From contig FIZJ01000007.1 in assembly GCA_900019385.1 (NCBI GenBank), positions 2,796 through 66,795 on the forward strand: a DNA stretch of 64,000 nt, written 5' to 3'. Of the stretch, positions 2,198 to 26,908 are shown one piece after another (the first letter of the stretch is position 1; every line of letters starts with the position of its first letter). A program made the translations under genes and the position numbers. The DNA is from an uncultured Clostridia bacterium (GTDB lineage: Bacteria > Bacillota > Limnochordia > Darwinibacteriales > DTU012). Below the pieces are notes generated by a model, which saw only the letters and a program-made list of their open reading frames with translations, did not search any database and was not told where the DNA came from.

Positions 2198-5100
2198 GTG
2201 GAGGCGGTGAACCTTAAAGAGTTCAAATCTCCGCCAAAGGAATACAGGGCTTCGCCTTTCTGGGCTTGGAATGACCAACTGGACCCGGACGAGCTGCGCC
2301 GGCAGGTGCGGGAACTGAAGCAGCAGTGTTTTGGCGGCTTTTTCATGCATGCCCGGGTAGGCCTAAAGACTGGTTATCTTTCGGAAGCATGGTTTTCATG
2401 TGTGGCGGCAGCCGTCGAAGAAGCCCAGCGGCAGGGTATGGAAGCCTGGCTGTATGATGAGGACCGCTGGCCGAGCGGCTGCGCGGGAGGGCTCGTCACT
2501 GCCGCCAATGATACGTTCAAAGCACGATGGCTGGTTATGCGCCCGGCCGCTTTGGCGGAGATCGGGACACTGCTCTCGGATCCAGATGTTGTGGCCCTGT
2601 TCCGCCTTGTTTTGGATGACGAGGGCCGCCTGATCGATACCGAACGGATTCAGAGCCCCAGCCAGCTGGATGGGCAATACGCGGCTGATCCTCGGGTATC
2701 TTACTGGCAGTTCCGGATGGAGTTTCAAAACCCCACCACCAACTCCAACGGCCATGGATATATCGATGTCCTGAACCCCGAGGCTGTGGCGGAGTTCATC
2801 CGGGTTACCCATGAACAGTATTACCAGCATGTAGGCGGGCACTTTGGCTCAACCATCCCCGGGGTGTTCGCCGATGAGCCCACCTACCGCAGCAAAGCAG
2901 AGGATTCGATCCCTTGGTCGCCGCTGCTTCCTGGTTATTTCCGCAGCGAACACGGCTGCGATCTCATCGATCATCTTCCGCTGCTGTTCTTTGAAGGCGG
3001 CTGCAGCGCCAAAATCCGCTACAGCTTCTACCGCACATTGACCAAAGCCTTTGTGTCCTGTTTTACCAAGCAGATTTACGATTGGTGCGAAGGACGAGGC
3101 TTGCAGTTCACCGGCCATTACTTAAGCGAGGACACACTGGTCAAACAGACCAATGCCATCGGCGCCGCCATGCCTCATTATCGGTACATGCATGCACCGG
3201 GGATCGATCACTTGGGGAACAACATCGCCGACAGCCTGACGCTCAAGCAGTGCGCGTCCGTCGGGAATCAATTCGGCCGCAAGCGCCTGCTCTGCGAAAT
3301 TTTCGGCGTGAGCGGGCATGCCATGACCTTTGAGGATCAGAAATGGATCGCCAATTTCCATTTCGCCCTGGGAATCACCTTCTTGTCGCAGCACTTGGTG
3401 CTCTATTCCATGACCGGCGACCGGAAAAGGGATTATCCGCCCACGTTCAGCTACCATCAGCCTTATTGGCCTTATTATCATAAAATCAATGACTATCTGG
3501 CCAGGGCCGGTTATTTCTGCTCGCAAGGCGATTACATCTGCGACACTCTGGTCCTGCATCCCATAGGCTCGGTCTGGGCCACGTTCGCGAGGCAGAAGGG
3601 GAAGCCCCTTTCCAGTAAGTACGACGCCGGATTGTTCAGGCTGCAGGATAGTTTGTTCAAAAGCCACATTCCCTTTGATTACGGCGATGAACTGATCATG
3701 GAAGACTGTGCCCGAGTGATCGAGGAGGAAGGGCACACCTTCCTGCAGGTTGGAAACGGCAAGTACAGCACAGTGATCGTGCCCCCGTCCTTGACTTGGA
3801 GCCGCAGCACGTACGGCCTGCTCAAAGCGTTCGCCAGCAAGGGAGGGCGGCTGCTCTTCGTCGGCGAAAGGCCGAGCTTGATCGATGGCGAACCAGGAGC
3901 CGGCGAGTGGGAAGAGCTCTGGCAGGAGCAAAGTGTGGCACTGGTTGCAGAAAACGATCCTCAGTCAACCGCAGTACTTAAGCAGTTCTGCCGGCGCCCT
4001 GTCGTGATCAGCGGAAGCGAGGACGGCCACATCTTGTTTCAAGCCCGCCGAGGCGAGGGCTGCTTATATCTGTTCATAACCAATACCAGCAGGGAGGCCG
4101 CTCACACCCTCACGTTGACAGTGCCGATCAAAGGCCGTGTCTACCGGTGCTGTTTTGAAACTGGAGAGATTGCCGAAGTGCAGCCGCGGGAAAAAAGAGA
4201 TCACCTGGAGTTGGAGCTGGTTTTGGCCCCCGCCGGCGCCCACGGGTATATTGTTGCCGAAGCAGAGTTGGAGATGGGCTGCAGCGGTTGGAAACATAGC
4301 GCCGCTGAACTGCGGATTCCTGCCGCAGGAGTGGAAGTGGTACCCTTGAGCAGCCAGTGGCAGTTTGAGCGTGTTCATAAAAACTCAATAACGCTGGATT
4401 ACTGCCGGTATATGATCGAATCCTCCGCTTGCGGTGAATCGGGCCAAGCTGGCTGGAGCGGCAGAATGCCAATCTGGCAGGCACGGCGCCGGCTGTGGCA
4501 CGCTGCGGGGCTCGACTGCTGCCAAGGCATCCAGCCTTGGGCGGTGCTGCCCCATAAAGAACAATTTCAAACACTGCCGGTACGTCTGCAGTTTGAGTTC
4601 TATGCGGACTATCTCCCTGGTGATCTGGGCGTCGTGATCGAAAACAGCCGCCATTGGCAGCTCAAGGTTAACGGTGTTGAGATCAGCACACAAACAGATA
4701 AGTTCCACTGGGACAAGCAGTTTGGGTTGGTGGACATCGCCAAGGCTGCGCGTCGGGGCAGGAACCTGATTGAACTTGCGGGCGGCTTCACATACGGCGT
4801 CGAGATTGAAGAGATTTATCTTGTGGGAGATTTTGCTCTCCGGCAGTGCGGCTATCAGGAATACCGATTGGTGCAGGAGCCCCGGCTTCTTACCGACGGC
4901 AGCTGGGTCTACCAGGGATATCCGTTCTATGCAGGAAACATGGTCTACGCCCAAGAGTTTGATCTGCGGGAAGCGGGCGGCAGCCGCGTCTGGATCAGGC
5001 TCAACCAGCCCAAGGGCACACTGTTCAGGGTGAAGGTGAACAATGGGGAATGGAAGTGCCTCATCTCCCAGCCGTGGGAAGTGGAGATCACCGGTGACTG

Positions 5101-5296
5101 TGTTCCAGGGAAGAACTTGCTGCAAATTGAGGTGGTGGGCTCGCTGCGGAACACATTCGGGCCGCTTCATCACCGCCTGCGGTCGCCGGCTTGGTGCGGG
5201 CCGAAGCAGTTTGAGGATGAATCGAGCTGGGTTGGAAACTATCAGTTTGAAGACTATGGGTTGATCGGCGGCGCTGAGTTGGTGGCGGCAAGATAA
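2198..5296 (+). CDS. Large cytoplasmic glycoside-hydrolase-like protein, CAZy family not assigned
   Basis: 1032-aa ORF with a GTG start; an alternative GTG lies at 2207. No signal peptide. N-terminal FWAWNDQLD motif and a C-terminal beta-sandwich resembling GH2/F5-8-type sugar-binding domains. Gene context is all CAZymes. Confidence 0.45.
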   Translation: MEAVNLKEFKSPPKEYRASPFWAWNDQLDPDELRRQVRELKQQCFGGFFMHARVGLKTGYLSEAWFSCVAAAVEEAQRQGMEAWLYDEDRWPSGCAGGLVTAANDTFKARWLVMRPAALAEIGTLLSDPDVVALFRLVLDDEGRLIDTERIQSPSQLDGQYAADPRVSYWQFRMEFQNPTTNSNGHGYIDVLNPEAVAEFIRVTHEQYYQHVGGHFGSTIPGVFADEPTYRSKAEDSIPWSPLLPGYFRSEHGCDLIDHLPLLFFEGGCSAKIRYSFYRTLTKAFVSCFTKQIYDWCEGRGLQFTGHYLSEDTLVKQTNAIGAAMPHYRYMHAPGIDHLGNNIADSLTLKQCASVGNQFGRKRLLCEIFGVSGHAMTFEDQKWIANFHFALGITFLSQHLVLYSMTGDRKRDYPPTFSYHQPYWPYYHKINDYLARAGYFCSQGDYICDTLVLHPIGSVWATFARQKGKPLSSKYDAGLFRLQDSLFKSHIPFDYGDELIMEDCARVIEEEGHTFLQVGNGKYSTVIVPPSLTWSRSTYGLLKAFASKGGRLLFVGERPSLIDGEPGAGEWEELWQEQSVALVAENDPQSTAVLKQFCRRPVVISGSEDGHILFQARRGEGCLYLFITNTSREAAHTLTLTVPIKGRVYRCCFETGEIAEVQPREKRDHLELELVLAPAGAHGYIVAEAELEMGCSGWKHSAAELRIPAAGVEVVPLSSQWQFERVHKNSITLDYCRYMIESSACGESGQAGWSGRMPIWQARRRLWHAAGLDCCQGIQPWAVLPHKEQFQTLPVRLQFEFYADYLPGDLGVVIENSRHWQLKVNGVEISTQTDKFHWDKQFGLVDIAKAARRGRNLIELAGGFTYGVEIEEIYLVGDFALRQCGYQEYRLVQEPRLLTDGSWVYQGYPFYAGNMVYAQEFDLREAGGSRVWIRLNQPKGTLFRVKVNNGEWKCLISQPWEVEITGDCVPGKNLLQIEVVGSLRNTFGPLHHRLRSPAWCGPKQFEDESSWVGNYQFEDYGLIGGAELVAAR

Positions 5297-5309: not shown

Positions 5310-6230
5310 CTAGTAATTTCTGACAATAAGTTCCGAAATCAAGCCTCTTCCACGTCCATTGCAGTTTATGCTTCGCTTTGCGCGGACACGGTCAATAGTG
5401 AAACCTTGATAAAGACTGTCAAGAAAACTATCGTCAGCGTTTACCGCCTTTGGATCAGAATTGCTGAGCAGAAGCAGCGCTCCTATCTCGTCCAATTCTC
5501 GGAAATAGTGGGCTAGGCGAATCTGATCATCGTCTGTGAAATCATCCTTATTGTAGGTAGTGAAGCTGGCGGTTTTTGTCAGCGGACGGTAAGGCGGATC
5601 GAAATACCCTAAAGTTCCGGGGCCGATATAGGGCCTGGAACAGGTAAAATCGCCGCAGACCAGCTTGACGCCTGCCAATGCTCTGCTCACTGCTCTTATG
5701 TTGTCGGCATCACAGATTTTCGGCTTTTTATACCTGCCGTGGGGGACGTTGAACTCACCCTTGTGATTTTGACGAAACAAGCCGTTATAACAAGTCTTGT
5801 TTAGGAAAATCATATAGCTGGCCCGCACAATCCAGTCTTCGTTAAAAGACTGATAGTCAAATTGGTTCATCTGCTGGTTATATTGTTCCCGTATACCATA
5901 ATAAAACACTCGGCGCGCCTGGGAGCCCAATGCCAGATAGTCTCTTTCAAGCTTGCTCAAACACGCAATCAAAGCATCCGGTTCTTGCTGGACAACCTTA
6001 TAACCAAGTATCAATTCTCTGTTGATGTCAACCAAACAGGCATTTTCAATGACAAACATGCTCTTCAAATGAAAGAAAAAAGCTCCACCACCGATAAAGG
6101 GCTCCACATAGGTTTTGATTACGCCTGATTCTTTGATTTCACGCGGTAGACGGGCAGTCAACTCACGCAGCAGTTGGGTTTTACCTCCTGCCCACTTAAG
6201 AAAGGGTTTTGCCTGCACCGGTTTGTTCAC
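5310..6230 (-). CDS. dam: Dam-type (D12 class, alpha group) DNA N6-adenine methyltransferase, orphan
   Basis: 306-aa ORF with FLKWAGGK (AdoMet-binding motif I) and DPPY (motif IV) in alpha-group order. The gene is about 40% GC against about 60% flanking. Strong GGAGGAAGGGGGG ribosome-binding site. No restriction endonuclease nearby. Confidence 0.85.
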   Translation of the reverse strand: MNKPVQAKPFLKWAGGKTQLLRELTARLPREIKESGVIKTYVEPFIGGGAFFFHLKSMFVIENACLVDINRELILGYKVVQQEPDALIACLSKLERDYLALGSQARRVFYYGIREQYNQQMNQFDYQSFNEDWIVRASYMIFLNKTCYNGLFRQNHKGEFNVPHGRYKKPKICDADNIRAVSRALAGVKLVCGDFTCSRPYIGPGTLGYFDPPYRPLTKTASFTTYNKDDFTDDDQIRLAHYFRELDEIGALLLLSNSDPKAVNADDSFLDSLYQGFTIDRVRAKRSINCNGRGRGLISELIVRNY

Positions 6231-6426: not shown

Positions 6427-7068
6427 TCACGCCATACTGGCACAGGCTTGAACAGCCACTTCCGCGGCGGACGCGGCATCAGGCGCGTAAAGGTCAGCGC
6501 CGATGCTGGCGCGGAATTGGTCGGTGACCGGCGCGCCGCCGATCATGATCTTGACCTTGTCTCTGATTCCCGCTGTTTTGGCGGCCTCCACGATCAGCTT
6601 CATTTCGTTCATGGTGGTTGTCAACAGCGCCGAACAGGCAATAATCTGCGCCTGCTCCTGAACAGCTGTCTCGATAAACTTCTCAACCGGCACATCAATA
6701 CCGAGGTCGATCACTTCGAGGCCTTTGCCTTCCATCATCATCCGCACCAGATTCTTGCCGATGTCATGGAGATCGCCCTTCACGGTGCCCAAGACCACTT
6801 TGCCTTTTGCCTTGACATCGTCCGAGACCAGCAGAGGCTTCAAAAGGGCGGTCCCGGCGTTCATGGCTCTAGCGGCAATCAGGACTTCCGGGACAAAAAT
6901 CTCGTTGTTTTTAAACTTGACACCGACAACGTCCATGCCGGCCATCAGGCCTTTTTCCAGAATCTCCTGGGCTGAAAACCCTTCGTCGATTGCCTGCTGC
7001 ACCAGTTCTTTGACAGCGCTGGCGTTTCCCTGCTGCAGTTTTAGGGAAATCTCATTCAGGATGCTCAT
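6427..7068 (-). CDS. Corrinoid (cobalamin-binding) protein, MtaC/MtbC-like: helical cap plus B12-binding Rossmann domain
   Basis: 213-aa ORF with the DxHxxG cobalamin-ligand motif (GDLHDIGKN) and the downstream glycine-rich MIGGAPV motif. GGAGGG ribosome-binding site. Co-oriented with, and 24 bp downstream of, the AraC gene. Confidence 0.8.
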   Translation of the reverse strand: MSILNEISLKLQQGNASAVKELVQQAIDEGFSAQEILEKGLMAGMDVVGVKFKNNEIFVPEVLIAARAMNAGTALLKPLLVSDDVKAKGKVVLGTVKGDLHDIGKNLVRMMMEGKGLEVIDLGIDVPVEKFIETAVQEQAQIIACSALLTTTMNEMKLIVEAAKTAGIRDKVKIMIGGAPVTDQFRASIGADLYAPDAASAAEVAVQACASMA

Positions 7069-7092
7069 CGTATACCCTCCAATACCAGTGTT

Positions 7093-8322
7093 TTATTTAA
7101 TCTGACCGCGTGTTTCCCTGAACTTGCCTGGAGTGGTTCCGGTCATTTTTTTGAACACCCGTGTGAAATAACTTTGGTCCTCAAACCCTACCAGGCTTGA
7201 TACGTCCGCCAGAGGGATAGCTTCGTTCACCAGCAGGTTTTTGCTCTTCTCGATCCGCACAGTGTTGAGATATGTGGTGAAATTGTAACCTGTTTCTTCC
7301 TTGAACAGCCTGCTGAAATAAGCCGGGCTTAAATGGACGTAGCTGGCTGCATCCTCGAGGGTTAGCCTTTCCATGTAGTTGTTGTTGGTGAATTCAATCG
7401 CCTTATATATTATATCCTTGTTTTTGACATTCTTAAAGTTAAACACACAGTCGGTGAAGCGGGTCAGGATTCTGGAGAGCCAGACGCTCAGCTCCTCAAT
7501 GTTGTGCAGGCGAGACACTTGGTTGAGGTATTGGTTGTTCAGACCGAAGATCTCTTCCTGTTCCGCCCCGCCTTCCATTGCCGCCCGGGAAAGAAGGACC
7601 ACAAGTTCCAACGACCGGTATTTTATATCCTCGAAGTCGTTTTGGCCGGTAAAAAACACGTAGCCCAGGATCTCGTTGAGCACTCGCAGGGATCCGGCTT
7701 TGTCGCCCACGGCCACATGTGAGATCAGCTCATTTTCCTTGTCGATTGGGTAATTCTTGTGTCTCGCCCCACCAAGGTAGGTTTGGGGATCGGAAGCGGG
7801 TATGGGGCTGTCCATAGGATCCGGCAAATGCCGTTTGTCATCTGCGGCTGCGTATCCGGCGAGCAGGTACAACAGTTCAGACAAGCTCGTAACCACATCA
7901 GGCTTGATTACCGGTATCTGATCCATGTGCGCTCTAAGCCGCCGCCGCGCTTTTTGATCCGGGATCTGCTGCTCGATGATTTCATCCAGCAGAAAGGCTT
8001 CCGGTTCTATCATCATCACCGGGCCGCCGACAAAAGCGCCCTTGAACTCCTCGCCGCGGTTGATGGGCGCCACCCAGTGAGTAAGCCCCATCGGGCAGAA
8101 GTAGATGTACCTGCCCCCAAACCGCTCCGCCTGATAACTGCCGTACAAATGGACGTTCGCACAATCGCACAAGTGGGCGAAACCATCCTGGACAGCTTCG
8201 CAGAACGGGCTGCAGCTTTTGAGGGCATGGTAGACAACGGACCCGGCGCCGTCGATAATGAAGCTGGAAACTCCCGTCGCCTTGCTGTAATGATCGATCC
8301 ACTGCCTGATCTCTTGAATCAT
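7093..8322 (-). CDS. AraC-family transcriptional regulator with an N-terminal PocR-type ligand-sensing domain
   Basis: 409-aa ORF. The C-terminal AraC helix-turn-helix pair is recognisable (…LEDAASYVHLSPAYFSRLFKEETG…IPLADVSSLVGFEDQSYFTRVFKKMTGTTP). The N-terminal ~200 aa resemble the PocR sensory domain. Confidence 0.75.
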   Translation of the reverse strand: MIQEIRQWIDHYSKATGVSSFIIDGAGSVVYHALKSCSPFCEAVQDGFAHLCDCANVHLYGSYQAERFGGRYIYFCPMGLTHWVAPINRGEEFKGAFVGGPVMMIEPEAFLLDEIIEQQIPDQKARRRLRAHMDQIPVIKPDVVTSLSELLYLLAGYAAADDKRHLPDPMDSPIPASDPQTYLGGARHKNYPIDKENELISHVAVGDKAGSLRVLNEILGYVFFTGQNDFEDIKYRSLELVVLLSRAAMEGGAEQEEIFGLNNQYLNQVSRLHNIEELSVWLSRILTRFTDCVFNFKNVKNKDIIYKAIEFTNNNYMERLTLEDAASYVHLSPAYFSRLFKEETGYNFTTYLNTVRIEKSKNLLVNEAIPLADVSSLVGFEDQSYFTRVFKKMTGTTPGKFRETRGQIK

Positions 8323-8462
8323 GTGCCCGCCCTTCCTTACCTTTCGGTTATATTCTAAACGATCCTGGAACCGGGATCAATGCGGCCGTGGAAAAAGTGC
8401 AGGGGAAAGGCGCCTTCGAGTAGAATAGACAAACAGGAACAAACCATGAGAGGGGAGACGCT

Positions 8463-9767
8463 ATGGGTTTCAAGCTTCGAGTTGGATTACTGGCAGTATT
8501 ATTGATATTGACATGTTCGCAGTTGGCAGGTGCGCAGTACAGCATTCCTCTCACTTCGCAGCGGGCATTCGAGGTTGCGGACAATATCATCGCCTGGCAG
8601 ACCGAGGCTGGTGGGTGGACCAAGAATACTGACTTCTCAAAGGTCATATACCAGCCGGGCATGTCCAGAGGAGAGCGGGCCATAAACGGCCAGGAAGCCG
8701 GGTGCTTCGACAACAATGCCAGCATCAACGAAATGAAGTTTCTAGCCATGATGTACGCACGGCACGGAATCGAGAAGTATCGGGACGCCGTCATCAAAGG
8801 CATCGACTGGATGCTGGACGCCCAGTACCCAAGCGGTGGCTGGCCGCAGTATTATCCGCTCATCGGCGGTTACCATGACAACGTGACCTTCAATGACGGC
8901 GCCATGATGAATGTGCTCAATTATATACAGGAGATCCTGAGGTACCGCGGGCTGTACGAGTTCTTGGGCGAAGAGCGCTTTGCCCGCCTGGAAGCCGCTT
9001 TGGAAAAAGGCATCGACTATATTCTCAAATCCCAGATCCGAGTCAACGGTTACCTCACAGCCTGGTGCCAGCAGCATGATCCAGTTACGTACGAACCGAA
9101 AATGGGGCGGAGCTATGAGCATCCGTCCATCGTCTCGGCGGAATCGGTCCCGATTGTGGAATTTTTGATGGCTCTGCCCGATCCGTCGGAAGAAGTGCGC
9201 CGGGCGATTGTGGGCGCGGTGGAGTGGTTTGAAATTTCCCAGCTGCCGAACGGCCAGTGGGCACGCTTTTACGATATTCAGTCCAATGTCCCGATCTTTT
9301 CGGGGCGGGACGGGATTATCCGCTATGACGTGAAAGACATCGAACTGGAGCGGCAGCAGGGTTACAGCTGGTTCAACGGCAGCGGCGGCAATCTATTGTC
9401 CAAGGCCCGGCGTGATGGGTACATTGACACGCTGCGGCAAAGCCTGCCCGATTACAAACCCCTCACCATCGATGTCTTCGCTGATCCGGCCGTTCCCAGG
9501 GTCATAAGCCCCAAGATCTGGCCCACTCAGACTGTAAGCGGCGTTCTCGCCGTCGAGGTCGAGATCTCCATGCGCAATCCGGAAAACCTGCGGGAAGTGG
9601 CCATCAAGATCAACAATCAAGAAATCTACCGCGGCAGCGATCTCCACATCCAGGTGCCGGTCGACACCACCGCGTTCCGCAATGGAACTTGCACCATCGC
9701 TGTAGAGACCACGACCACACTCGGGACATCCCTGTCCCACTACGTCAATTTCATTGTGGCAAATTAA
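8463..9767 (+). CDS. Secreted pectate lyase, PL10 family (PelA/Pel-15E type), with an extra C-terminal beta domain
   Basis: 434-aa ORF with a signal peptide (MGFKLRVGLLAVLLILTCSQLAGAQ). Motifs AWQTEAGGWTKN and YPSGGWPQYY are typical of (alpha/alpha)3-barrel PL10 lyases. Confidence 0.7.
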   Translation: MGFKLRVGLLAVLLILTCSQLAGAQYSIPLTSQRAFEVADNIIAWQTEAGGWTKNTDFSKVIYQPGMSRGERAINGQEAGCFDNNASINEMKFLAMMYARHGIEKYRDAVIKGIDWMLDAQYPSGGWPQYYPLIGGYHDNVTFNDGAMMNVLNYIQEILRYRGLYEFLGEERFARLEAALEKGIDYILKSQIRVNGYLTAWCQQHDPVTYEPKMGRSYEHPSIVSAESVPIVEFLMALPDPSEEVRRAIVGAVEWFEISQLPNGQWARFYDIQSNVPIFSGRDGIIRYDVKDIELERQQGYSWFNGSGGNLLSKARRDGYIDTLRQSLPDYKPLTIDVFADPAVPRVISPKIWPTQTVSGVLAVEVEISMRNPENLREVAIKINNQEIYRGSDLHIQVPVDTTAFRNGTCTIAVETTTTLGTSLSHYVNFIVAN

Positions 9768-9780
9768 AACCAGACAACAA

Positions 9781-9825
9781 GGCCAACTTCAAGCCCTGTG
9801 GACTTGCAAGTTGGCCTTTCTTTTT
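9781..9825. terminator. Bidirectional rho-independent terminator between the convergent PL10 and URO-D genes
   Basis: GGCCAACTT-gap-AAGTTGGCC hairpin followed by TTTCTTTTT. It overlaps the stop codon of the minus-strand gene. Confidence 0.6.
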
Positions 9826-10909
9826 ACACCGGCTCTTTCACGGCTTCAAACAGCGCCTCGATATTCGCCGGATCCACATCGGGAAGAATCGCTTCATGGC
9901 TCGGCGAGATAATCAGGCCAGTGGGGAAGATGCGTTTCAACTCCTGCACCTTGTCTTTGACCTGCTTAGGGGTGCCGTTGATCAAGAGCCACTGGGCGTC
10001 CACACCGCCGCAGAAAGAGACTTTGTCGCCGAAATCCCGCTTCAATCTCTCCGGTTCCATGTCTTTGGCCAAGGCCTGAATAGGATGGATGACATCGACG
10101 CCTGCGGCAATCAGATCGGGAATGACGGGATAGATTGATCCACAGGAATGATAAATAACCTTCAACCCGTAACTCTTGGCCTGTTCAATGAATTTCCTGG
10201 TACCCGGCATGACAAATTCCCGTATCGCATCCGGAGAGACCATCAATCCCCGCTGGCTGCCGAAGTCATTGCCGATCAGAATGGCGTCCAGCTTGCCTTT
10301 GGTGGCGCTGTAGAAGATCTCGTTGGCTTCAAGGTAGAACTGGGTGATGCGGTCGATTACAGCCCGGAACATTTCCGGCTCGGTCAGCATCTTCACCAGA
10401 GCGGTTTCCATGCCGAAGGCCGAACAGGCGTCTTGAAAGTGCGCCGACCACAAAACGCCCATGATTGGGTGGCCTGGCGGCGCGGCCTCCACCGCTCGGC
10501 GGCATCGGTCCGGATCAATATGTTTCGCCGGATCGGGCCAGTCGAAGTCATCAACGCGGCTGGGATCGGAATAGTCTTCAAAGAAGCCGGGCGCAGTCAG
10601 AGTCCTTTGATCGGGTGTGTTAGCCTTTTTGGCAAACTGAAGGGCGGTGTAAATCGCCTTGCTGTCGGGGGCGTCATAGGGGATCTCCACCGGATAGATG
10701 TCGTCCCCGATCTTTAGTTTCAGCTCGTCGATATCGCCGACGTCGAAATAGGCAAAGAGCCGTTCGCAGGCTTCCGGCACAGGCAGGCCAAGCCAAGACG
10801 CGGGCCTGTCCACCGGCCTTCTTTCCACTGTGGCGAAAAAACGTTCCTTAGGATCCATGGCATTCTTCCTTTCTCGCAGCAAATACCGGTCACTGAATTG
10901 ATTCACCAT
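9824..10909 (-). CDS. Uroporphyrinogen decarboxylase (URO-D)/MtaA-like family methyltransferase
   Basis: 361-aa ORF. N-terminal KERFFATVERRPVDRP and the HSCG motif (IYHSCGSIYPVIPDLIAAGVDVIHP) are characteristic of URO-D/MtaA/CmuA-family proteins. Confidence 0.72.
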   Translation of the reverse strand: MVNQFSDRYLLRERKNAMDPKERFFATVERRPVDRPASWLGLPVPEACERLFAYFDVGDIDELKLKIGDDIYPVEIPYDAPDSKAIYTALQFAKKANTPDQRTLTAPGFFEDYSDPSRVDDFDWPDPAKHIDPDRCRRAVEAAPPGHPIMGVLWSAHFQDACSAFGMETALVKMLTEPEMFRAVIDRITQFYLEANEIFYSATKGKLDAILIGNDFGSQRGLMVSPDAIREFVMPGTRKFIEQAKSYGLKVIYHSCGSIYPVIPDLIAAGVDVIHPIQALAKDMEPERLKRDFGDKVSFCGGVDAQWLLINGTPKQVKDKVQELKRIFPTGLIISPSHEAILPDVDPANIEALFEAVKEPV

Positions 10910-11015: not shown

Positions 11016-13226
11016 ATGATGATCGAGATGGTAAAAGTGGAAGCTGGTTCCTTTAAAATGGGCGGAGGCGATCTGAAAGACAGGCCCGACGCGCTCCCGG
11101 TGCATACGGTCACCATCACCAGGGATTTCTGGATCGCCAGGGAACCGATCAAATACGAACTCTTCGCCAGGTTTTGCCGCGAAGAGCTGGGAACTGAACC
11201 CGACGCCGAAAACTTATTGGGATATGTGGTCGGGATCAGCTGGCACGACGCAGACCGGTTCTGCGCCTGGCTCAGCGCCAAGACAGGACTGCCTTACCGC
11301 CTGCCTACCGAGGCGGAATGGGAGTACTGCGCCAGAAACAGCCGGCGCTTCGGGATTGACCGGATGTGTGACATGAATATCAGAGAATGGTGTTTTGACT
11401 GGTATGACGCATATAGTCCCGAAGAGCAGGCCGATCCGGCAGGTCCTGATTCAGGCATGTTCAAGGTTGTCCGGGGCGGCTTCCTGGACAACCCGGCCAA
11501 GTTCAACGCCTACTATTTGGATGTCTGGGCCAGGGGGTCGCTGCCGCCGCATTACCGGCATTTCCCGGGAGACCCCAACGATTTCGGCCGGCACAATGTG
11601 GGCTTTAGGGTTGTGCAGGCAGAGCCGGTGCAGACCAACGGGAAAAACGTTGTCATACCCCTGTCCCTCCATGTCCGGCAGCACCGTCCCCGGACTGAGA
11701 TCACTACCGAAAAGCCCTACTTTAGAAAGCGCCGTTTGTTTCCAATCCCGCCGGATACGGCCAGTCCCGAGGCTGTCAGGGCTTTTGGGCTAAATCCGCT
11801 TCTGCGCCACCACAACCATTCACCTGGGTTCGATGTGGCGCCGAATGGCGATTTGATTGTCTCAATCTATTCGTCCTACCACGAGTATGATCCGGAAGTG
11901 GGGCTGATGGGCGCAAGGCTGCGATATGGCGCCGATGAGTGGGAAATGCCGGATATCTGGCTGAACGCTGTGGGGGTCAACGACCACGCCCCTTTGCTTT
12001 TTACCGACCGCGACGGCACAATCTATCATTTCTGGGGATGGCCCCAATTAGACAATGCCTTTCCGTTTCAGTTCGTCTACTCCAAAGACAGCGGTGCCAC
12101 CTGGAGCCCGGTCCAGTTCCCGAAGTTCGCGGATCGGGCGGAGAAAGTGGCCAGCCAGCCTATCAATACGGTGGTCCATGCCGAAGACGGCTGGTACTAT
12201 GTGCCCTGCGATGTCCAGGGCGAGTCTGCCTCGATTTTGTGGCGCTCCATAGATTTGATCAACTGGGAGGTGCCGCGGGGCAAGACTGCGGGAAGGCACA
12301 GCGCTGTGGTGGAGCTCAAGGACGGCCGGCTGCTGGCGATAGGCGGCAAAAACACCAGCATCTACGGATACATGCCGCAGGCCATCTCCACCGATAAAGG
12401 CGACAGTTGGACAGTGAGCAAGACGCCGTTTCCGGCCATGAGCTCAGGCCAGCGCCCCTGTGTGATCCGGCTGCAGAGCGGAAGACTACTTTACTGCGGT
12501 GATTTTCAGAATAAGCAGGGTAACAGGCCGCCGGGCGCCGCCGAGGATCAATGGGGTTCGTTCGTCGCCTACTCGGAAGATGAAGGCGCGACCTGGAAGA
12601 TCAAAAAGCTGTGGGGCACTCAGCACAAGAAACAGGATCCGGCTCAATTGGGCGGAGCCCATACGCTGGGCTACAGCGTATGCCGGCAGTCGCCGGACGG
12701 GCTGATCCATGTCATCACCTCCAACAACCGGCCCTGCCTGCATCTTTGCTTCAACGAAGCGTGGCTCCTGGCCGACACCGACGGCATATGCCCGAGTGAC
12801 GAGGAACTGATGCGCGAGGACACGGTGGAAATCTCCAATGTCACAACTTATCAGGAGCGCTACGCCGACGGCGGCGTCAAATGTGTCTATTCCGGCGGCA
12901 CTGCTCCCGACGGGCGCTTCCTGCTCCACGGAGAAGAAAAATGGTATTATCCGTCGGGTGAATTGATGACTGAGGCGCGGTACCAGTTCGGCAGGCGCGT
13001 AGGCGCTTACACCCACTACAGCCCGGAAGGCCGCAAGATTTGGGAGTGGGAATACCTGGATGATCATGTTTCCCTCTACAAAACTTACTACACAAATGGC
13101 GGGCTCAGGACGGTAGGGCGTTACCGAAACCGAATCGCCGAAGGGTGGGCGGAACGATATGAGCCCGATGGGAAGCTGGCGGCCCGGGCTCTGTTTGAAA
13201 ACGGGGAGATCGTCAAGGTTGAATAG
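11016..13226 (+). CDS. Multidomain protein: FGE-sulfatase (SUMF1-type) domain + BNR/sialidase-like beta-propeller + MORN-like repeats
   Basis: 736-aa ORF. N-terminal ~200 aa carry formylglycine-generating-enzyme-family motifs (WCFDWY, RVVRGGFL, NVGFRVV). The middle has Asp-box/BNR repeats (SKDSGATW, SEDEGATW). The C-terminus has YwqK/MORN-type repeats. No signal peptide. Confidence 0.6.
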   Translation: MMIEMVKVEAGSFKMGGGDLKDRPDALPVHTVTITRDFWIAREPIKYELFARFCREELGTEPDAENLLGYVVGISWHDADRFCAWLSAKTGLPYRLPTEAEWEYCARNSRRFGIDRMCDMNIREWCFDWYDAYSPEEQADPAGPDSGMFKVVRGGFLDNPAKFNAYYLDVWARGSLPPHYRHFPGDPNDFGRHNVGFRVVQAEPVQTNGKNVVIPLSLHVRQHRPRTEITTEKPYFRKRRLFPIPPDTASPEAVRAFGLNPLLRHHNHSPGFDVAPNGDLIVSIYSSYHEYDPEVGLMGARLRYGADEWEMPDIWLNAVGVNDHAPLLFTDRDGTIYHFWGWPQLDNAFPFQFVYSKDSGATWSPVQFPKFADRAEKVASQPINTVVHAEDGWYYVPCDVQGESASILWRSIDLINWEVPRGKTAGRHSAVVELKDGRLLAIGGKNTSIYGYMPQAISTDKGDSWTVSKTPFPAMSSGQRPCVIRLQSGRLLYCGDFQNKQGNRPPGAAEDQWGSFVAYSEDEGATWKIKKLWGTQHKKQDPAQLGGAHTLGYSVCRQSPDGLIHVITSNNRPCLHLCFNEAWLLADTDGICPSDEELMREDTVEISNVTTYQERYADGGVKCVYSGGTAPDGRFLLHGEEKWYYPSGELMTEARYQFGRRVGAYTHYSPEGRKIWEWEYLDDHVSLYKTYYTNGGLRTVGRYRNRIAEGWAERYEPDGKLAARALFENGEIVKVE

Positions 13227-14765: not shown

Positions 14766-15428
14766 GTGAAGAAACTGGTGGCGGTTTACACAGGGCAGGG
14801 GCTGGCGGAGCCTTTGGCGCGGTTGATCCAGGCTGAGCTGCCCAATGTCCAACTGGTGAATATTATCGATGACGGGCTGATTCATGATGTGATCAAAGCC
14901 AGTGGTGTGACCAAGCCCATCGCCAGGCGGCTGGTCAAGTACTATCAAATCGCGGCGGAGATCGGCGCCGATCTGATCTTAAACACTTGTTCGTCAGTGG
15001 GCGAAGTGGTTGAACTCGGCAGACAAATTGTGGATGTCCCGATTGTAAGAATTGATGAACCTATGGCCAGAGAGGCGGCGGCCAACTATCAAAGGATCGG
15101 AGTCATCGCCACTCTGCCGACGACACTAAGGCCTACAGCCAGGCTGGTCCAAGCTCAGGCTCACGCCATGGGCAGGGAAGTCACGATTGTGGACGGCCTT
15201 GCGGATGGGGCGTACCAGGCCTTGATCAGCGGCCGAGCAGAGGAGCATGACAAGCGGATCATGGATGTGGGGCGCAGCCTGGCCCAGAAAGTGGATTGCA
15301 TTGTCCTGGCCCAGGCTTCGATGATGAGGATGCAGCAAACCCTGGTAGAAGCGGCACAGCTTCCGGTCCTGTCAAGCCCGCCGTTGTGTGCGGCCTATCT
15401 TAAATCGCTGCTGGAGCGTGGCGGTTGA
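14766..15428 (+). CDS. Asp/Glu/hydantoin racemase-family protein (possible sugar epimerase/isomerase)
   Basis: 220-aa ORF with GTG start and a GGAGGGA ribosome-binding site. It has a two-Cys architecture (NTCSSVG…) like PF01177-type racemases. Confidence 0.45.
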   Translation: MKKLVAVYTGQGLAEPLARLIQAELPNVQLVNIIDDGLIHDVIKASGVTKPIARRLVKYYQIAAEIGADLILNTCSSVGEVVELGRQIVDVPIVRIDEPMAREAAANYQRIGVIATLPTTLRPTARLVQAQAHAMGREVTIVDGLADGAYQALISGRAEEHDKRIMDVGRSLAQKVDCIVLAQASMMRMQQTLVEAAQLPVLSSPPLCAAYLKSLLERGG

Positions 15429-16255
15429 TGCTGAGCCAAACTGTGAAAGAACTGGAGAAAACCGCGCGGCAGATCCGGCGCGACATTATCACCATGATTT
15501 ACCAGGCGGGGGATGGTCATCCCGGCCCGAGCTTGTCGTGCGCGGATCTGGTCACTGCGCTCTACTTCGCTGTCATGAATGTCGAACCGGCGGATCCGCA
15601 CTGGCCTCGGCGGGATCGCCTGATTCTCTCCAAAGGCCATGCATGTCCCGCGGTCTATGCCGCCTTGGCCAGAAAAGGCTACTTCGATGCCGCCGAGCTG
15701 CCCAGGCTGCGCAGTTTAGGCAGCATCCTCCAGGGACACCCTGATATGCTTAAGACGCCCGGGATTGATTTTAGCTCCGGCTCGCTGGGCAACGGGATCA
15801 GCGCCGGGCTGGGTATGGCTTTGGCCGCCAGAATCAGCGGGCTCGATTACCATACTTATGTTATTTGCGGTGACGGCGAGCTGCAGGAAGGTATAGTCTG
15901 GGAAGCGGCCATGGCTGCCAAACGCTATCAGGTTGGTAATTTAACCGTTCTGGTAGACTACAACGGTGTCCAAAGCGGGGGCCGGATCGAAGAGATCAGC
16001 GGTTTGGAGCCGCTTGTCCCCAAATGGGAAGCGTTCGGGTGGCACTGCCAGGAGATCGATGGCCATGACTTCACCGAGATCCTCACTGCCATTGCAGAGG
16101 CCAAAGCAGTGCCTGACAGGCCGTCGGTGATTGCGGCCCGCACCGTCAAAGGCAAAGGTGTCTCATTTATTGAAAACAACAATGCCTGGCACAAACGAGT
16201 GCCCACCAGAGAGGAATGGGAGCAGGCCATGAAAGAGTTGGGAGCTGAAGATTGA
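15428..16255 (+). CDS. Transketolase, N-terminal (TPP-binding) subunit of a split transketolase, copy 1
   Basis: GDGHPGPSLSCADL and SKGHACPAVYA motifs. The ATG overlaps the upstream stop (TGATG). Confidence 0.85.
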   Translation: MLSQTVKELEKTARQIRRDIITMIYQAGDGHPGPSLSCADLVTALYFAVMNVEPADPHWPRRDRLILSKGHACPAVYAALARKGYFDAAELPRLRSLGSILQGHPDMLKTPGIDFSSGSLGNGISAGLGMALAARISGLDYHTYVICGDGELQEGIVWEAAMAAKRYQVGNLTVLVDYNGVQSGGRIEEISGLEPLVPKWEAFGWHCQEIDGHDFTEILTAIAEAKAVPDRPSVIAARTVKGKGVSFIENNNAWHKRVPTREEWEQAMKELGAED

Positions 16256-17211
16256 TGCAGTACTCAAGCACCAGAGAGGCTTTTATCAACAGCCTGACTG
16301 AGCTCGCAGGCCGGAACCGGAAGATCGTCCTGGTCTGCGCCGATTCGGCGAAAGTGATCCGGGCCGATGGTTTTGCCGACCGGTTTCCCGAACGGTTCAT
16401 CGATGTAGGCATCGCAGAGCAGAATGCTGTGGCCTGCGCCTCCGGAATGGCGTCTTGCGGCCTTGTTCCTTTTGTCGCCACATATGCCGGGTTCATCACG
16501 ATGCGGGCCTGCGAACAAGTGCGGACTTTTGCGGCATATCCCAACCTCAACGTGAAGATGGTGGGGGCAAACGGCGGAATCGGCGCTGGAGAGCGTGAAG
16601 GTGTCACCCACCAGTTTTTCGAGGACTTGGGGATTCTCCGGACCATCCCCGGCGTCACCATCGTTGTTCCAGCCGATGCTTCCCAGGTGGGAAAAGCGGT
16701 GGAGGTGATCGCCGATATCCCGGGCCCAGCCTACATCCGAATCGGCAGCGGCCGCGATCCAGTCGTGTTTGACGAGGATCTCCCGTTTGAACTGGGTAAA
16801 ATCCGTATTCTTAAGGCGTACGGCGAGGATGTAGCCGTTTTTGTCAACGGGCACGCCATCCCCCGGGCCCTGGCGGCGGCAGAAGGCCTTAAGGCGCTTG
16901 GGATCAAGGCCATGGTGGTGGAAGTCCACACCCTCAAGCCTTTGGATTCGGAAGCCATCGCCGATGTGCTCAAGCTAACGGGAGCGGCAGTCACAGTCGA
17001 GGATCACAACATCATCGGCGGGCTGGGAAGCGCCGTTGCAGAGGTGATCGCCGAGCGCGCTCCGGTTCCCTTGTCCCGGATCGGGATAGAGGATCGGTTC
17101 CCCGAGTCCGGTGATGCGGAACAGCTCATGGACGCGTACGGATTAAGTGTTGATGATATTATGGATGCGTGCAGGCGCGCAGTGGGCAGAAAAGAAAGGA
17201 GATCATCATGA
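16255..17211 (+). CDS. Transketolase, C-terminal (pyrimidine-binding) subunit, copy 1
   Basis: Recognisable Pyr-binding and C-terminal transketolase domain sequence (…FIDVGIAEQNAV…). The start overlaps the upstream stop. Confidence 0.85.
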   Translation: MQYSSTREAFINSLTELAGRNRKIVLVCADSAKVIRADGFADRFPERFIDVGIAEQNAVACASGMASCGLVPFVATYAGFITMRACEQVRTFAAYPNLNVKMVGANGGIGAGEREGVTHQFFEDLGILRTIPGVTIVVPADASQVGKAVEVIADIPGPAYIRIGSGRDPVVFDEDLPFELGKIRILKAYGEDVAVFVNGHAIPRALAAAEGLKALGIKAMVVEVHTLKPLDSEAIADVLKLTGAAVTVEDHNIIGGLGSAVAEVIAERAPVPLSRIGIEDRFPESGDAEQLMDAYGLSVDDIMDACRRAVGRKERRSS

Positions 17212-19670: not shown

Positions 19671-20507
19671 GTGATACCCTTGGCTGATCTGGGGCTTTTG
19701 ACCAAGAAAGCACTGCAGACCCGCATTGCCATTCTGAAGATGATTTACCAGGCGAAAGGCGGCCACATTGGAGGGGCCTTTTCCTGCACTGATATTTTGG
19801 TGACACTTTATTATGCCGTGATGCGCATCGATCCCCACAACCCCCGCTGGGAAGGCCGGGATCGGTTCGTTTTGAGCAAAGGCCACAGTGTGGAAGGACT
19901 GTACGCGATTTTGGCTGATTTGGGGTTTTTCCCCAAAGAGGAATTGGACTCTTACCGCGGTTTTCATTCGCGCTTGATCGGCCATCCCACAAACAGAGTA
20001 CCGGGGATCGAAGTGAACACCGGCGCCCTCGGGCACGGTTTGTCAGTGGGTGTGGGCATGGCGCTGGCTGGAAAAATGGACGGCAAAGACTACAAAGTCT
20101 ATGTCCTGATGGGCGATGGGGAACTGGCGGAAGGCTCGGTTTGGGAAGCGGCCATGGCCGGCAGCCATTACAAGCTGGACAATTTGATCGGGATTGTGGA
20201 CCGCAACCGGCTGCAGATCGGCGGCAGCACCGAGGATGTGATGGCCCTTGAGGACCTGAGAGCGAAGTGGCAGGCCTTCGGTTGGGAGGTTCTGGAGTGC
20301 GGCGGCCATGATTTCCAGAACCTGGTGGAGACATTCGGCAAAATCCCGGCTGTGTCTGGAAAGCCGCATGTGGTTATCGCCAATACCGTCAAGGGCAAAG
20401 GCGTCTCGTTCATGGAGCACCAGGCTGGATGGCACCACCGGGTCCCCAATGAGGAGGAGTACGCCCAGGCGCTGCAGGAGCTGGAGCATATGATGGGAGC
20501 GGTTTAA
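19671..20507 (+). CDS. Transketolase N-terminal subunit, copy 2
   Basis: KGGHIGGAFSCTDIL and SKGHSVEGLYA motifs. Paralog of 15428-16255. Confidence 0.85.
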   Translation: MIPLADLGLLTKKALQTRIAILKMIYQAKGGHIGGAFSCTDILVTLYYAVMRIDPHNPRWEGRDRFVLSKGHSVEGLYAILADLGFFPKEELDSYRGFHSRLIGHPTNRVPGIEVNTGALGHGLSVGVGMALAGKMDGKDYKVYVLMGDGELAEGSVWEAAMAGSHYKLDNLIGIVDRNRLQIGGSTEDVMALEDLRAKWQAFGWEVLECGGHDFQNLVETFGKIPAVSGKPHVVIANTVKGKGVSFMEHQAGWHHRVPNEEEYAQALQELEHMMGAV

Positions 20508-20509
20508 GT

Positions 20510-21454
20510 ATGAAGAAGACCAATAAAATGCCATGCCGGAAAGCGTTCACAGAAACTCTCTTGGAACTGGCCCGAAAAGACAGGGACATTGTCGCCCTGA
20601 CCAGCGATGCCAGGGGTTCCGTGACTTTGGAGCAGTTTGCCAAGGAACTGCCGGAGCAGTTTGTGGAAGTGGGCATTGCCGAGCAGAACTTGGTGGGAAT
20701 TGGGGCTGGTTTGGCCGCCTGCGGCAAGAAACCGTTTGTCTGCGGCCCCGCCTGTTTCCTTTCTGCCCGCAGCCTTGAGCAGGTCAAGGTGGATGTGGCC
20801 TACAGTGATTTGAATGTGAAGATAATTGCCGTAAGCGGTGGTGTCAGCTACGGGGCTTTGGGTTCGACCCATCACGCCGTCCATGACCTGGCGGTGATGC
20901 GGGCGATTCCCAACCTGACTGTCGTGCTGCCGTGCGACGTGCATCAGACCAGGAAGCTCACGGAAGCCCTGGTTGATTACAAAGGCCCGGTTTATGTGCG
21001 CATGGGCCGGGGAGCGGTCGCCGACGTGTACTCGGAAGCTCACGTTCCTTTCGCAATCGGGCGGGCCAATGTCCTTCTCGACGGCAAGGACCTGGCAATC
21101 ATCGCCGCGGGCGAGACGGTGCGCCACGCGCTGGATGCGGGCTTGGCCTTGAAAAAACAGGGTGTAAGCGCCCGGGTGATCGACATGCACACGATCAAAC
21201 CGCTGGATCAGGAAACAGTGCTGCAGGCTGCCTGTGACACTGGAAACCTGATCACTGTTGAAGAGCACAGCGTTTACGGCGGCCTTGGATCGGCCGTGGC
21301 CGAGTTGGTGGCCCAGAATTATCCGGTGCGGATGCGGATTCTGGGCATACCGGACGAGCCTGCCGTCACCGGAGAATCATCCCAGGTGTTCAAGTATTAT
21401 CAGCTGACAGGCGACGAGATCGTCCAGGCGGCCTTGGCCATGCTGGATGTGTGA
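20510..21454 (+). CDS. Transketolase C-terminal subunit, copy 2
   Basis: …FVEVGIAEQNLVG…; paralog of 16255-17211. Confidence 0.85.
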   Translation: MKKTNKMPCRKAFTETLLELARKDRDIVALTSDARGSVTLEQFAKELPEQFVEVGIAEQNLVGIGAGLAACGKKPFVCGPACFLSARSLEQVKVDVAYSDLNVKIIAVSGGVSYGALGSTHHAVHDLAVMRAIPNLTVVLPCDVHQTRKLTEALVDYKGPVYVRMGRGAVADVYSEAHVPFAIGRANVLLDGKDLAIIAAGETVRHALDAGLALKKQGVSARVIDMHTIKPLDQETVLQAACDTGNLITVEEHSVYGGLGSAVAELVAQNYPVRMRILGIPDEPAVTGESSQVFKYYQLTGDEIVQAALAMLDV

Positions 21455-21468
21455 AAGGAGACAGAAGT

Positions 21469-24497: not shown

Positions 24498-24502
24498 AGG
24501 GT

Positions 24503-25822: not shown

Positions 25823-25829
25823 CAGCGCG

Positions 25830-26891: not shown

Positions 26892-26908
26892 AGTTGGGAG
26901 ATGGTGGC

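Follow-up and report, generated by a model that had tools for sequence, protein, structure and literature searches.

A candidate corrinoid-dependent system for demethylation of methyl-ether sugars in a rhamnogalacturonan II-type locus of an uncultured Clostridia bacterium

The stretch of 64,000 nucleotides (hereafter: the window) from contig FIZJ01000007.1 of an uncultured Clostridia bacterium assigned to Darwinibacteriales (GenBank assembly GCA_900019385.1) was found, according to the map of its open reading frames (ORFs) and Pfam scans, to be a large plant-glycan locus of the rhamnogalacturonan II (RG-II) type. The reading that we favour, with confidence only a little above even, is that it encodes the substrate-side half of a corrinoid methyltransferase system scattered over the genome, which would remove O-methyl groups from the methyl-ether sugars of RG-II. 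RG-II is the most complex plant glycan, and the fate of its methyl-ether sugars constitutes a gap. Candidates for the parts of a four-component demethylase are distributed over the genome: the candidates for methyltransferase I (MT I) and the corrinoid carrier are encoded in the window, RACo is encoded on contig C49, and the candidates for methyltransferase II (MT II) are an MtaA-like protein on C49 and a domain on contig C11. The MT I candidates are three proteins with the uroporphyrinogen decarboxylase (URO-D) fold, P0003, P0005 and P0006, while the carrier, P0001, is accompanied by a PocR-AraC regulator, P0002 (Table 1).

Fusions, distribution and metal sites of the URO-D-fold proteins

The strongest result comes from natural fusions, in which the P0006 family is joined to a corrinoid domain in four architectures, together with MT II modules of the homocysteine or pterin type. 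In three Bacteroidales genomes the P0006-type domain forms the N-terminus of a chain of 1002-1249 amino acids (aa) and is followed by the S-methyl_trans, cap and B12-binding domains. This order is exhibited by L120, L122 and P0367, and in L121 (G141:C29, 4110-7859) it is supplemented by a weak pterin region. P0368 comprises the P0006 domain, cap and B12 domain, while in P0386 (L128, 886-3813) a Pterin_bind/MtrH-like domain, cap and B12 domain precede a P0006 domain that is 46% identical to P0006 over its whole length (E 1e-125). P0367, P0368 and P0386 were identified in a search of 1.84 billion representatives, which also returned P0373, composed of homocysteine methyltransferase, cap and B12 modules. 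The domain that is joined with corrinoid, homocysteine methyltransferase or pterin modules shares 35-46% identity with P0006, and the HLDG, GGCCG and DLHDIGKN motifs are intact in both fusions examined (L120 and L121). Thus, the four architectures are built like a complete corrinoid methyltransferase in which the P0006 domain takes the place of the methyl donor-side enzyme (MT I). Those fusions that keep a pterin module (L121 and P0386) might accept methyl groups both from methyl-folate and from an alternative donor, or they might pass the methyl group of a sugar to folate. Immediately upstream of the gene for P0386 there is one for a DUF2284 protein (L128, 65-601).

P0006 itself gave no match to Pfam or NCBIfam models, and comparison of its sequence profile with the PDB revealed nothing significant. 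Its AlphaFold model (pLDDT 94.2), however, matches the MtaA structures 4AY8 and 4AY7, followed by those of HemE, with Foldseek E-values of ~1e-8 and TM of 0.6. At every locus examined a gene for a glycoside hydrolase (GH) of family GH31 adjoins the P0006-family gene or lies within a few kb of it, often together with GH141, and the GH31 of the window is 47-57% identical to the GH31 enzymes found beside P0006-family genes elsewhere. The GH141 enzyme BT1002 releases 2-O-methyl-D-xylose-alpha-1,3-L-fucose from chain A of RG-II, and the GH139 enzyme BT0984 is a 2-O-methyl-fucosidase (PMC10154630); a preprint on RG-II from 2026 mentions neither demethylation nor GH31. A 638-aa protein without a Pfam family is encoded at 21451-23367 (+), and its stop codon overlaps the start region of P0006. 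It was tested as a candidate for GH141 and does not belong there; judging by its closest protein-atlas clusters, which are GH76/GH127-like (score 0.98), it may be a so far unclassified (alpha/alpha)6 glycosidase.

The family of P0003 is unusually well conserved, with 57-88% identity across Bacillota, Bacteroidota, Spirochaetota, Lentisphaerota and Verrucomicrobiota. Residues H254-S-C256-G, H275 and S337-H338-E339 are invariant, the pattern H254-S-C256...H338-E339 being retained in 60 orthologs, and the fold was matched by Foldseek to 4AY7 with an E-value of 3e-13. Unbiased clustering of the neighbours of P0003 genes in 62 loci from five phyla revealed rhaM-type mutarotases (25 loci), RhaT (20), GH29 (14), AraC (13) and LacI (11) proteins, Rbs-type monosaccharide ABC transporters (10), GH31 (10), MFS proteins (7) and corrinoid proteins (6-7). 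The loci that do contain a corrinoid gene are arranged independently of one another. The arrangement of the window recurs in L010 and L011; locus L008 of Bacteroidia MS502-39 (BNTV01000002.1) comprises MtaB, GH31, homologs of P0006 and P0003, homocysteine methyltransferase, carrier, activation-like protein and GH141; and a Bacteroides metagenome-assembled genome and Clostridium thailandense (with RACo), among others, possess arrangements of their own. In P0003-containing genomes without a carrier nearby, the carrier was identified elsewhere, in three types of clusters: with an MtaA-like URO-D protein and an activation-like protein; with homocysteine methyltransferase and an activation-like protein; or, in C. 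grantii, with PocR-AraC, RACo, an activation-like protein and a URO-D protein. The MtaB homolog of L008 (5189-6565), encoded in an RG-II-type locus, scores 409 bits compared to an MtaB cut-off of 720, which suggests that methanol or a further ether may also donate methyl groups at that locus.

In an early survey of neighbours a corrinoid link was seen in 5 of 35 long P0003 loci, and the impression of a weak link was reversed by the fusions and by co-occurrence. In an even set of 201 Bacteroidales genomes, a stand-alone carrier is encoded in all 13 genomes with a P0003 ortholog, compared to 28 of the 188 others, and a corrinoid partner is present in each of the nine genomes with a P0006-family gene. 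For either family the numbers are 18/18 versus 26/183 (Fisher 5e-14), and as the species in the sample are related, the Fisher values overstate independence, which has to be counted against our reading; the all-or-none pattern is clear. P0003 and P0001 were also predicted to form a complex, with an ipSAE of 0.67 (0.68, 0.64 and 0.67 in the individual runs), whereas none of the three controls exceeded 0.00; in the calibration, the mark was reached by 58 of 80 solved complexes and by 2 of 110 mismatched pairs. The runs agreed in at least 89% of the contacts, the pLDDT of the partner was at least 86, and the predicted interface involves invariant residues at the top of the barrel and the NEIFVPEVL region of the cap. 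Since complexes of MT I and carrier have been solved for related systems, this result may reflect family likeness, and it is a measure of likeness rather than a proof of binding. Taken together, coupling of MT I to a corrinoid domain is indicated for the P0006 family by the fusions, while for P0003 the modelled complex and the co-occurrence are supportive only.

The original prediction had counted three URO-D-family proteins in the window and allowed that they might be genuine HemE. The count stands, with PF01208 matches for P0003 and P0005 and a predicted fold for P0006, while to judge from profile scores none of the paralogs is HemE: the hemE model (TIGR01464) gives P0003 21 bits compared to a cut-off of 303, does not match P0005 or P0006, and gives 46 and 64 bits for the URO-D paralogs on contigs C49 and C18, respectively. 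The MtaA and CmuA models score above hemE for the URO-D paralogs, although below their own cut-offs; for the MtaA model (TIGR01463; cut-off 235) P0003 obtains 53 and P0005 25, with no match for P0006. At the positions of the zinc ligands of MtaA, the C49 paralog exhibits H-N-C...C, P0003 exhibits H-S-C...H-E, and P0006 and the paralogs on C18 and C21 exhibit H-x-D, so that the MtaA-type His-Cys-Cys site (H-x-C...C) is confined to the C49 paralog and is not found in P0003, P0005 or P0006. His-Cys-Cys marks the S-methyltransferases of the superfamily, whereas in O-methyltransferases Cys is replaced by carboxylates or non-ligands (Kountz and Balskus, PMC10418091). By this ligand rule, one enzyme of the genome would be acceptor-side (thiol) and the other five, all of them encoded in sugar loci, would be of the O type. 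The further H-x-D paralogs (C18:5716-6759 and C21:14926-16071) are encoded one beside ABC permeases and a xylose-isomerase-like TIM barrel, the other beside a protein with a galactose-binding-like domain, and they could be further sugar-linked MT I enzymes.

For P0005, family membership and location make the role of MT I possible. A homolog with 81% identity has been identified in Candidatus Wallacebacter cryptica, and the homologs in other genomes are found in the context of sugar ABC transporters, GH4 and an esterase. A 907-aa protein without a Pfam family is encoded directly upstream of P0005 (47765-50488, +), and its closest atlas clusters have N-terminal domains of the GH20b or GH67N type; if it is glucuronidase-like, P0005 could act on 4-O-methyl-glucuronate, which we offer only as a lead.

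Corrinoid carrier, regulator and components encoded elsewhere

The original prediction had also described a stand-alone corrinoid protein with the motif GDLHDIGKN, co-transcribed with a PocR-domain AraC regulator, and both points are borne out by the sequence. P0001 matches hidden Markov models of the cap and of the Rossmann domain above cut-off (Table 1), in agreement with a cobalamin-binding fold. The motif occupies residues 98-106 and includes His101, SALLTTT and GGAP motifs are present as well, and the base-off/His-on residues (D99-L-H101-D-I-G104, S146-A-L148 and G177-G178) are invariant in an alignment. MtgC and pyl_corrinoid score highest among the NCBIfam models but stay under cut-off (TIGR02370: 201 compared to 215; MtgC_2: 228 compared to 370), and P0001 can be placed near subfamilies of the MtaC/MttC/MtgC type as an apparent equivalog of none of them. 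Among the proteins of known structure its relatives are the Moorella protein 1Y80 (the best, E 5e-61) and MttC (7XCN, E 3e-45), and by all these comparisons P0001 appears to be a corrinoid protein of the methyltransferase type. Its orthologs in sister genera (80-82% identity) are the carriers of modules comprising RACo, an activation-like protein, an MtaA-like protein and the carrier; one RACo/carrier module of a sister genus adjoins a short MetH.

P0002 exhibits the features of MtaR-type regulators, i.e. an N-terminal PocR domain, a C-terminal AraC helix-turn-helix domain and a position beside corrinoid methyltransferase genes. Its homologs in other families of the same class (37-39% identity) occupy clusters composed of RACo, PocR-AraC, carrier and URO-D genes, and the methanol (mta) cluster of Eubacterium limosum starts with mtaR-mtaC1, mtaC1 being distinct from the catalytic mtaC2 (PMC13602510). 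PocR-AraC proteins are the usual regulators of corrinoid methyltransferase modules. The genes for P0002 and P0001 are separated by a spacer of 24 nucleotides, a GGAGG ribosome-binding site precedes the ATG of the carrier, the only terminator-like hairpin follows the carrier gene, and L010, L011, L087 and L088 share the promoter-like site that precedes the regulator gene, according to one alignment of divergent promoter regions. These sequence features, taken together, support co-transcription in a two-gene operon. The divergently transcribed gene for the pectate lyase of family PL10 is a possible target of the regulator. The gene for P0003, which the original prediction had grouped with the pair, does belong to the same locus; however, the intervening PL10 gene on the opposite strand and a terminator-like site of its own indicate a separate transcription unit, which is only co-located with the operon.

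Around the PL10 gene, synteny is maintained in L010, L011, L087, L088 and L125. P0001 is 90-91% identical to its relatives from the same genus, whereas the regulator P0002 reaches only 73-78%. The carrier stays in the locus even with PocR-AraC undetected (L125), in the same-genus genome G240 between the GH106 and PL10/URO-D genes; in another genome of the genus, G239, neither P0003 nor P0001 was found. As an alternative, the original prediction had envisaged a split CarH-like pair that senses B12 or light, which now seems unlikely. The Wx9EH motif is the hallmark of CarH, and it is absent from P0001, which does not contain any Trp; the CarH model scores 28.5 compared to a cut-off of 400, the DNA-binding protein is a separate chain of the AraC type, and the orthologs reside in RACo/MtaA-like modules.

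The whole genome (2.17 Mb in 71 contigs, 97.7% completeness) encodes five PF01208 proteins plus P0006, two stand-alone corrinoid proteins and one RACo. On contig C49, a carrier is followed by a URO-D protein (181 bits), a weak Met_synt_B12-like ORF and RACo (268 bits), the latter with Fer2, Raco_middle and RACo_C_ter domains. A 454-aa protein encoded on contig C11 (164139-165503, -) contains the genome's only homocysteine S-methyltransferase domain (PF02574), 36% identical to its counterpart in a Bacteroidia locus, and half of a pterin-binding domain; this fragment compares to ~800 aa in MetH of sister genera. The absence of MT II and RACo from the window had been taken to mean that they may be encoded elsewhere in the genome, which holds for RACo, for an MtaA-like partner and for the homocysteine domain, whereas a complete pterin-type MT II was not found in the genome. 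Neither were MtaB, MetE and MTHFR. Since MtaB is absent from the results of the genome search, we set the methanol route aside for this organism, and since MTHFR, MetE and a complete pterin module were not found, the acceptor is likely to be a thiol, probably homocysteine, rather than tetrahydrofolate. The methyl group may feed the synthesis of methionine, auxotrophy being equally possible; the organism is either auxotrophic for methionine and B12 or dependent on methyl-corrinoid donors.

Features of the window

Table 1. Features discussed in the text (coordinates within the window)
Feature	Position	Strand	Remarks
GH106	2198-5296		Pfam scan
Terminator-like hairpin and T-run after the carrier gene	6400-6382	-	the operon's only such hairpin
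P0001, corrinoid (cobalamin) carrier, 213 aa	6427-7068	-	PF02607 cap 76 bits and PF02310 Rossmann domain 93.5 bits, both above cut-off
P0002, PocR-AraC regulator, MtaR-like, 409 aa	7093-8322	-	PF10114 (PocR, 86 bits) and PF12833 (AraC helix-turn-helix); first gene of the operon
Promoter-like site TTGATC-17-TAGAAT upstream of the regulator	8380-8352	-	in the divergent region common with the PL10 gene
PL10 pectate lyase, secreted	8463-9767	+	PF09492 at 318 bits; divergent from the PocR-AraC gene
Terminator-like site after the P0003 gene	9777-9799	-	
P0003, URO-D-superfamily enzyme	9824-10909	-	PF01208 93 bits; probable true start M17 at 10861
P0006, divergent URO-D-fold protein	23382-24497	+	fold recognition only; invariant H264-L-D266-G
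GH31 glycosidase, alpha-xylosidase-like	29827-32103	+	family accompanying P0006 homologs in other genomes
GH29 alpha-L-fucosidase	34116-35480	+	family beside P0003 homologs in 14/62 loci
P0005, URO-D-family protein	50508-51653	+	PF01208 39 bits; H-C-C motif, no third ligand

In addition to the features listed in Table 1, Pfam scans of the window revealed an FGE-sulfatase/BNR protein, a short fucose-isomerase-like gene, GH43, PL1, GH42, GH2, GH95, FGGY, DUF5696, ABC sugar transporters and a BT_1020-like (GH143-type) protein, while a scan against Rfam gave no match. The FGE-sulfatase/BNR protein (11016-13226, +; 736 aa) combines an FGE-sulfatase-like N-terminal part with a BNR_2 sialidase-like propeller and a MORN repeat, an unusual composition; its gene is divergent from that of P0003, and its synteny with the fucose-isomerase-like gene is retained in L011. 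Two split transketolase pairs, a transaldolase, a DUF1537 acid-sugar kinase, PdxA and DHDPS are encoded at 15425-17211, 19671-21454 and 24368-27799 (+), and this set resembles the catabolism of branched sugars (apiose-type) and acid sugars, in agreement with an RG-II locus. Between GH106 and the carrier operon lies a gene for a Dam-type N6-adenine DNA methyltransferase (5310-6230, -; PF02086, 175 bits), with no restriction partner seen nearby.

Proposed mechanism, alternatives and known systems

In the mechanism that we propose, GH31, GH29, GH95 and other enzymes would free methylated sugars or the disaccharide 2-O-Me-Xyl-alpha-1,3-Fuc. P0006 would serve as MT I for 2-O-methyl-D-xylose or its disaccharide with fucose, being linked to GH31, P0003 as MT I for a methylated 6-deoxyhexose such as 2-O-methyl-L-fucose, and P0005 possibly as a third MT I. 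The metal site (His-x-Asp in P0006, His-x-Cys...His/Glu in P0003) would polarize the ether oxygen, allowing Co(I) of the carrier P0001 to attack the methyl carbon and take over the methyl group. Methyl-Co(III) would be then discharged to a thiol, either via the His-Cys-Cys MtaA-like enzyme of C49 or, with homocysteine as the thiol, via the C11 homocysteine S-methyltransferase domain, which would yield methionine. Carrier oxidized to Co(II) would be re-reduced by the RACo of C49 and the MetH-activation-like protein, and the MtaR-like PocR-AraC regulator would activate expression of the carrier, perhaps together with that of the divergent PL10 gene. In this scheme we infer the substrates (from the GH31, GH141, GH29, rhaM and RhaT context), the direction of transfer, the acceptor, the ligand and targets of the regulator, and the pairing of carrier and enzymes. 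Corrinoid methyl transfer in a plant-glycan locus, as originally predicted, is strongly supported by the fusions, the GH context, the co-occurrence, the presence of RACo and an MtaA-like partner in the genome and the predicted complex; what has changed is that a thiol acceptor appears likelier and that P0005 showed no link to corrinoids.

Several points weigh against such a system. What we say of activity, substrate and expression follows from sequence, context and predicted structure, and all NCBIfam matches are under their curated cut-offs. About nine of ten P0003 loci are without a corrinoid gene within 10 kb, and the homologs of P0005 have no carrier nearby in the three neighbourhoods examined. 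P0003 retains one Cys at the metal site, with an S- or Se-methyl substrate being possible. Neither CobS nor a cobalamin riboswitch was found in the genome, and therefore the corrinoid cofactor would need to be imported. In the literature we found no characterized case in which Co(I) demethylates an aliphatic sugar ether, and no paper on corrinoid- or cobalamin-dependent demethylation of sugars; a paper on Ca. Darwinibacteriales mentions pectin but no corrinoid system. The RNA data are uninformative: six metatranscriptome runs from anaerobic digesters, the habitat of the organism, contain the stretch, in contigs of 4-11 kb that span convergent and divergent genes at flat depth and reveal neither transcription units nor induction.

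Three other explanations have to be weighed. The PocR-AraC/carrier pair could be mainly regulatory, sensing B12 or methyl status and controlling pectin genes such as PL10, with the URO-D enzymes using the carrier of C49, and the E. limosum mta cluster, which opens with the same gene pair and has a separate catalytic mtaC2, the conserved divergent promoter region common with PL10 and the second carrier in the C49 core module would all suit it. We nevertheless regard it as improbable, given that the orthologs of P0001 serve RACo/MtaA-like modules in sister genera, that G240 keeps the carrier in the locus without a detectable PocR-AraC, that the carrier is better conserved than the regulator, that P0001 has neither Trp nor Wx9EH, and that it passed the predicted-complex test with P0003. 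We read P0001, to judge from these data, as a probable working methyl carrier that this genus recruited to its RG-II locus, and a purely regulatory role as a minor rival.

It also seems rather unlikely that methyl transfer proceeds as proposed but from different donors, i.e. methanol from the methyl esters of pectin, pectin-bound methoxylated aromatics (ferulate-type), or methyl-S and methyl-Se compounds as in the mlp clusters. No MtaB was found in the genome, although L008 does have its homolog; the orthologs of P0003 are flanked by RhaT, Rbs-type ABC transporters, rhaM and GH29, with no aromatic or sulfur genes, and the P0006 family tracks GH31 and GH141 at the loci examined. On the other hand, all characterized MT I enzymes of the URO-D superfamily use aryl ethers or S-, Se- or halide methyl compounds, and Cys ligands are retained in P0003 and P0005. 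Finally, the URO-D-fold proteins might not be methyltransferases at all but enzymes for the catabolism of unusual sugars, free of cofactors or dependent on a metal, which could for example decarboxylate aceric acid or uronates; it would then be by chance that they are encoded near the corrinoid operon. The fold match is alike for HemE and MtaA and cannot tell a decarboxylase from a methyltransferase, a branched carboxy-sugar is a component of RG-II, and most P0003 loci and all sampled P0005 loci are without a nearby carrier. Yet the four fusion architectures of the P0006 family, the corrinoid partner in every genome with either family, the alignment of the HxC/HxD motifs with the zinc site of MtaA, the low hemE score and the predicted complex of P0003 and P0001, which passed its controls, make this explanation very improbable.

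Among the known systems, the O-demethylases MtvABC, OdmABCD and VdmB share with the proposed one the multi-component logic, an MtaC-like carrier, a RACo-type activator and the use of several substrate-specific MT I enzymes per carrier, and some of their MT I enzymes likewise belong to the URO-D superfamily (PMC10418091). However, they act on aryl methyl ethers, whereas here the context points to aliphatic methyl ethers of sugars; the genes are scattered in loci of carbohydrate-active enzymes (CAZymes) instead of forming one operon, and the genome has no complete pterin-type MT II, MTHFR or Wood-Ljungdahl context, a thiol such as homocysteine being the probable acceptor. The MtaABC/MtaR systems of E. 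limosum and methanogens resemble the window in that the genes for a PocR-AraC regulator and then a corrinoid protein open the cluster, and the URO-D paralogs have MtaA (4AY7) as their closest relative of known structure. These systems differ in that no MtaB was found here, in that the URO-D proteins are proposed to be donor-side MT I enzymes rather than acceptor-side MtaA, and in MtaA scores far under the cut-off. In MtaB, zinc activates an aliphatic C-O bond. MetH has in common with the proposed system the homocysteine domain, the cap and B12 domains and an activation-like protein, its DLHDIGKN loop is identical to that of P0001, and the Bacteroidales fusions are MetH-like chains in which the P0006-type domain replaces or supplements the pterin domain as the methyl-donor module. 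In the genome studied here the modules are encoded by separate genes and the pterin half is truncated, so that the system may work like MetH without being its member.

The Type 1 mlp clusters of non-methanogens comprise MtaA-like proteins, a corrinoid protein and RACE but no tetrahydrofolate methyltransferase (PMC10418091), and the C49 module with its His-Cys-Cys site is similar to them. They are, however, tied to sulfur or selenium genes and all Mlps exhibit His-Cys-Cys, while P0003 and P0006 have altered ligands and are encoded among sugar and CAZyme genes. The P450 6-O-methyl-D-galactose demethylase of marine porphyran degraders (PMC6292453) is the only characterized dedicated route of sugar O-demethylation that we found in the literature. 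It is likewise encoded in polysaccharide utilization loci and unblocks catabolism, but it is oxidative and O2-dependent and releases formaldehyde, in contrast to the proposed system, which would be anaerobic, would rely on nucleophilic Co(I) and would conserve the methyl group. MesA and MesB, the folate-independent methionine synthases ascribed to Price and colleagues in 2021, are core-MetE-type enzymes that reportedly make methionine from a methyl-corrinoid protein without methyl-folate; here, in contrast, the homocysteine module is of the MetH type (PF02574) and plant methyl sugars are the proposed source of methyl groups.

More broadly, and with confidence that stays well short of even, we suggest that URO-D-fold methyltransferases for sugar ethers, either free or in MetH-like chains, constitute a new B12-dependent class in anaerobic pectin degraders of several phyla, which would demethylate 2-O-methyl-xylose and 2-O-methyl-fucose and yield methionine or, in the case of pterin-fused forms, methyl-tetrahydrofolate. 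To our knowledge, 2-O-Me-Xyl-alpha-1,3-Fuc is the only RG-II linkage left uncut by the model gut bacterium Bacteroides thetaiotaomicron, and if our reading is true, demethylation would unblock this linkage. The natural fusions are single-polypeptide enzymes that should be easy to assay, and cultivable bacteria that encode these genes were identified as well (Roseimarinus sediminis DSM 28824, Gaoshiqia hydrogeniformans, Mangrovibacterium lignilyticum, Clostridium grantii DSM 8605, C. thailandense and Mahella australiensis); hence the hypothesis is directly testable. Anaerobic, B12-dependent O-demethylation of sugars would add a new class of reactions to carbohydrate catabolism, and a function would be assigned to two large families, whose members are now named 'uroporphyrinogen decarboxylase family', 'trimethylamine corrinoid protein 2' or '5-methyltetrahydrofolate--homocysteine methyltransferase'. 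For an organism whose genome yielded no MTHFR, MetE or complete MetH, methyl ethers of plants would be a source of methyl groups; in guts and digesters, the methyl groups of the plant cell wall would be connected with methionine and with one-carbon metabolism, and there would be a concrete reason why fibre degraders that are unable to make corrinoids depend on them through cross-feeding.

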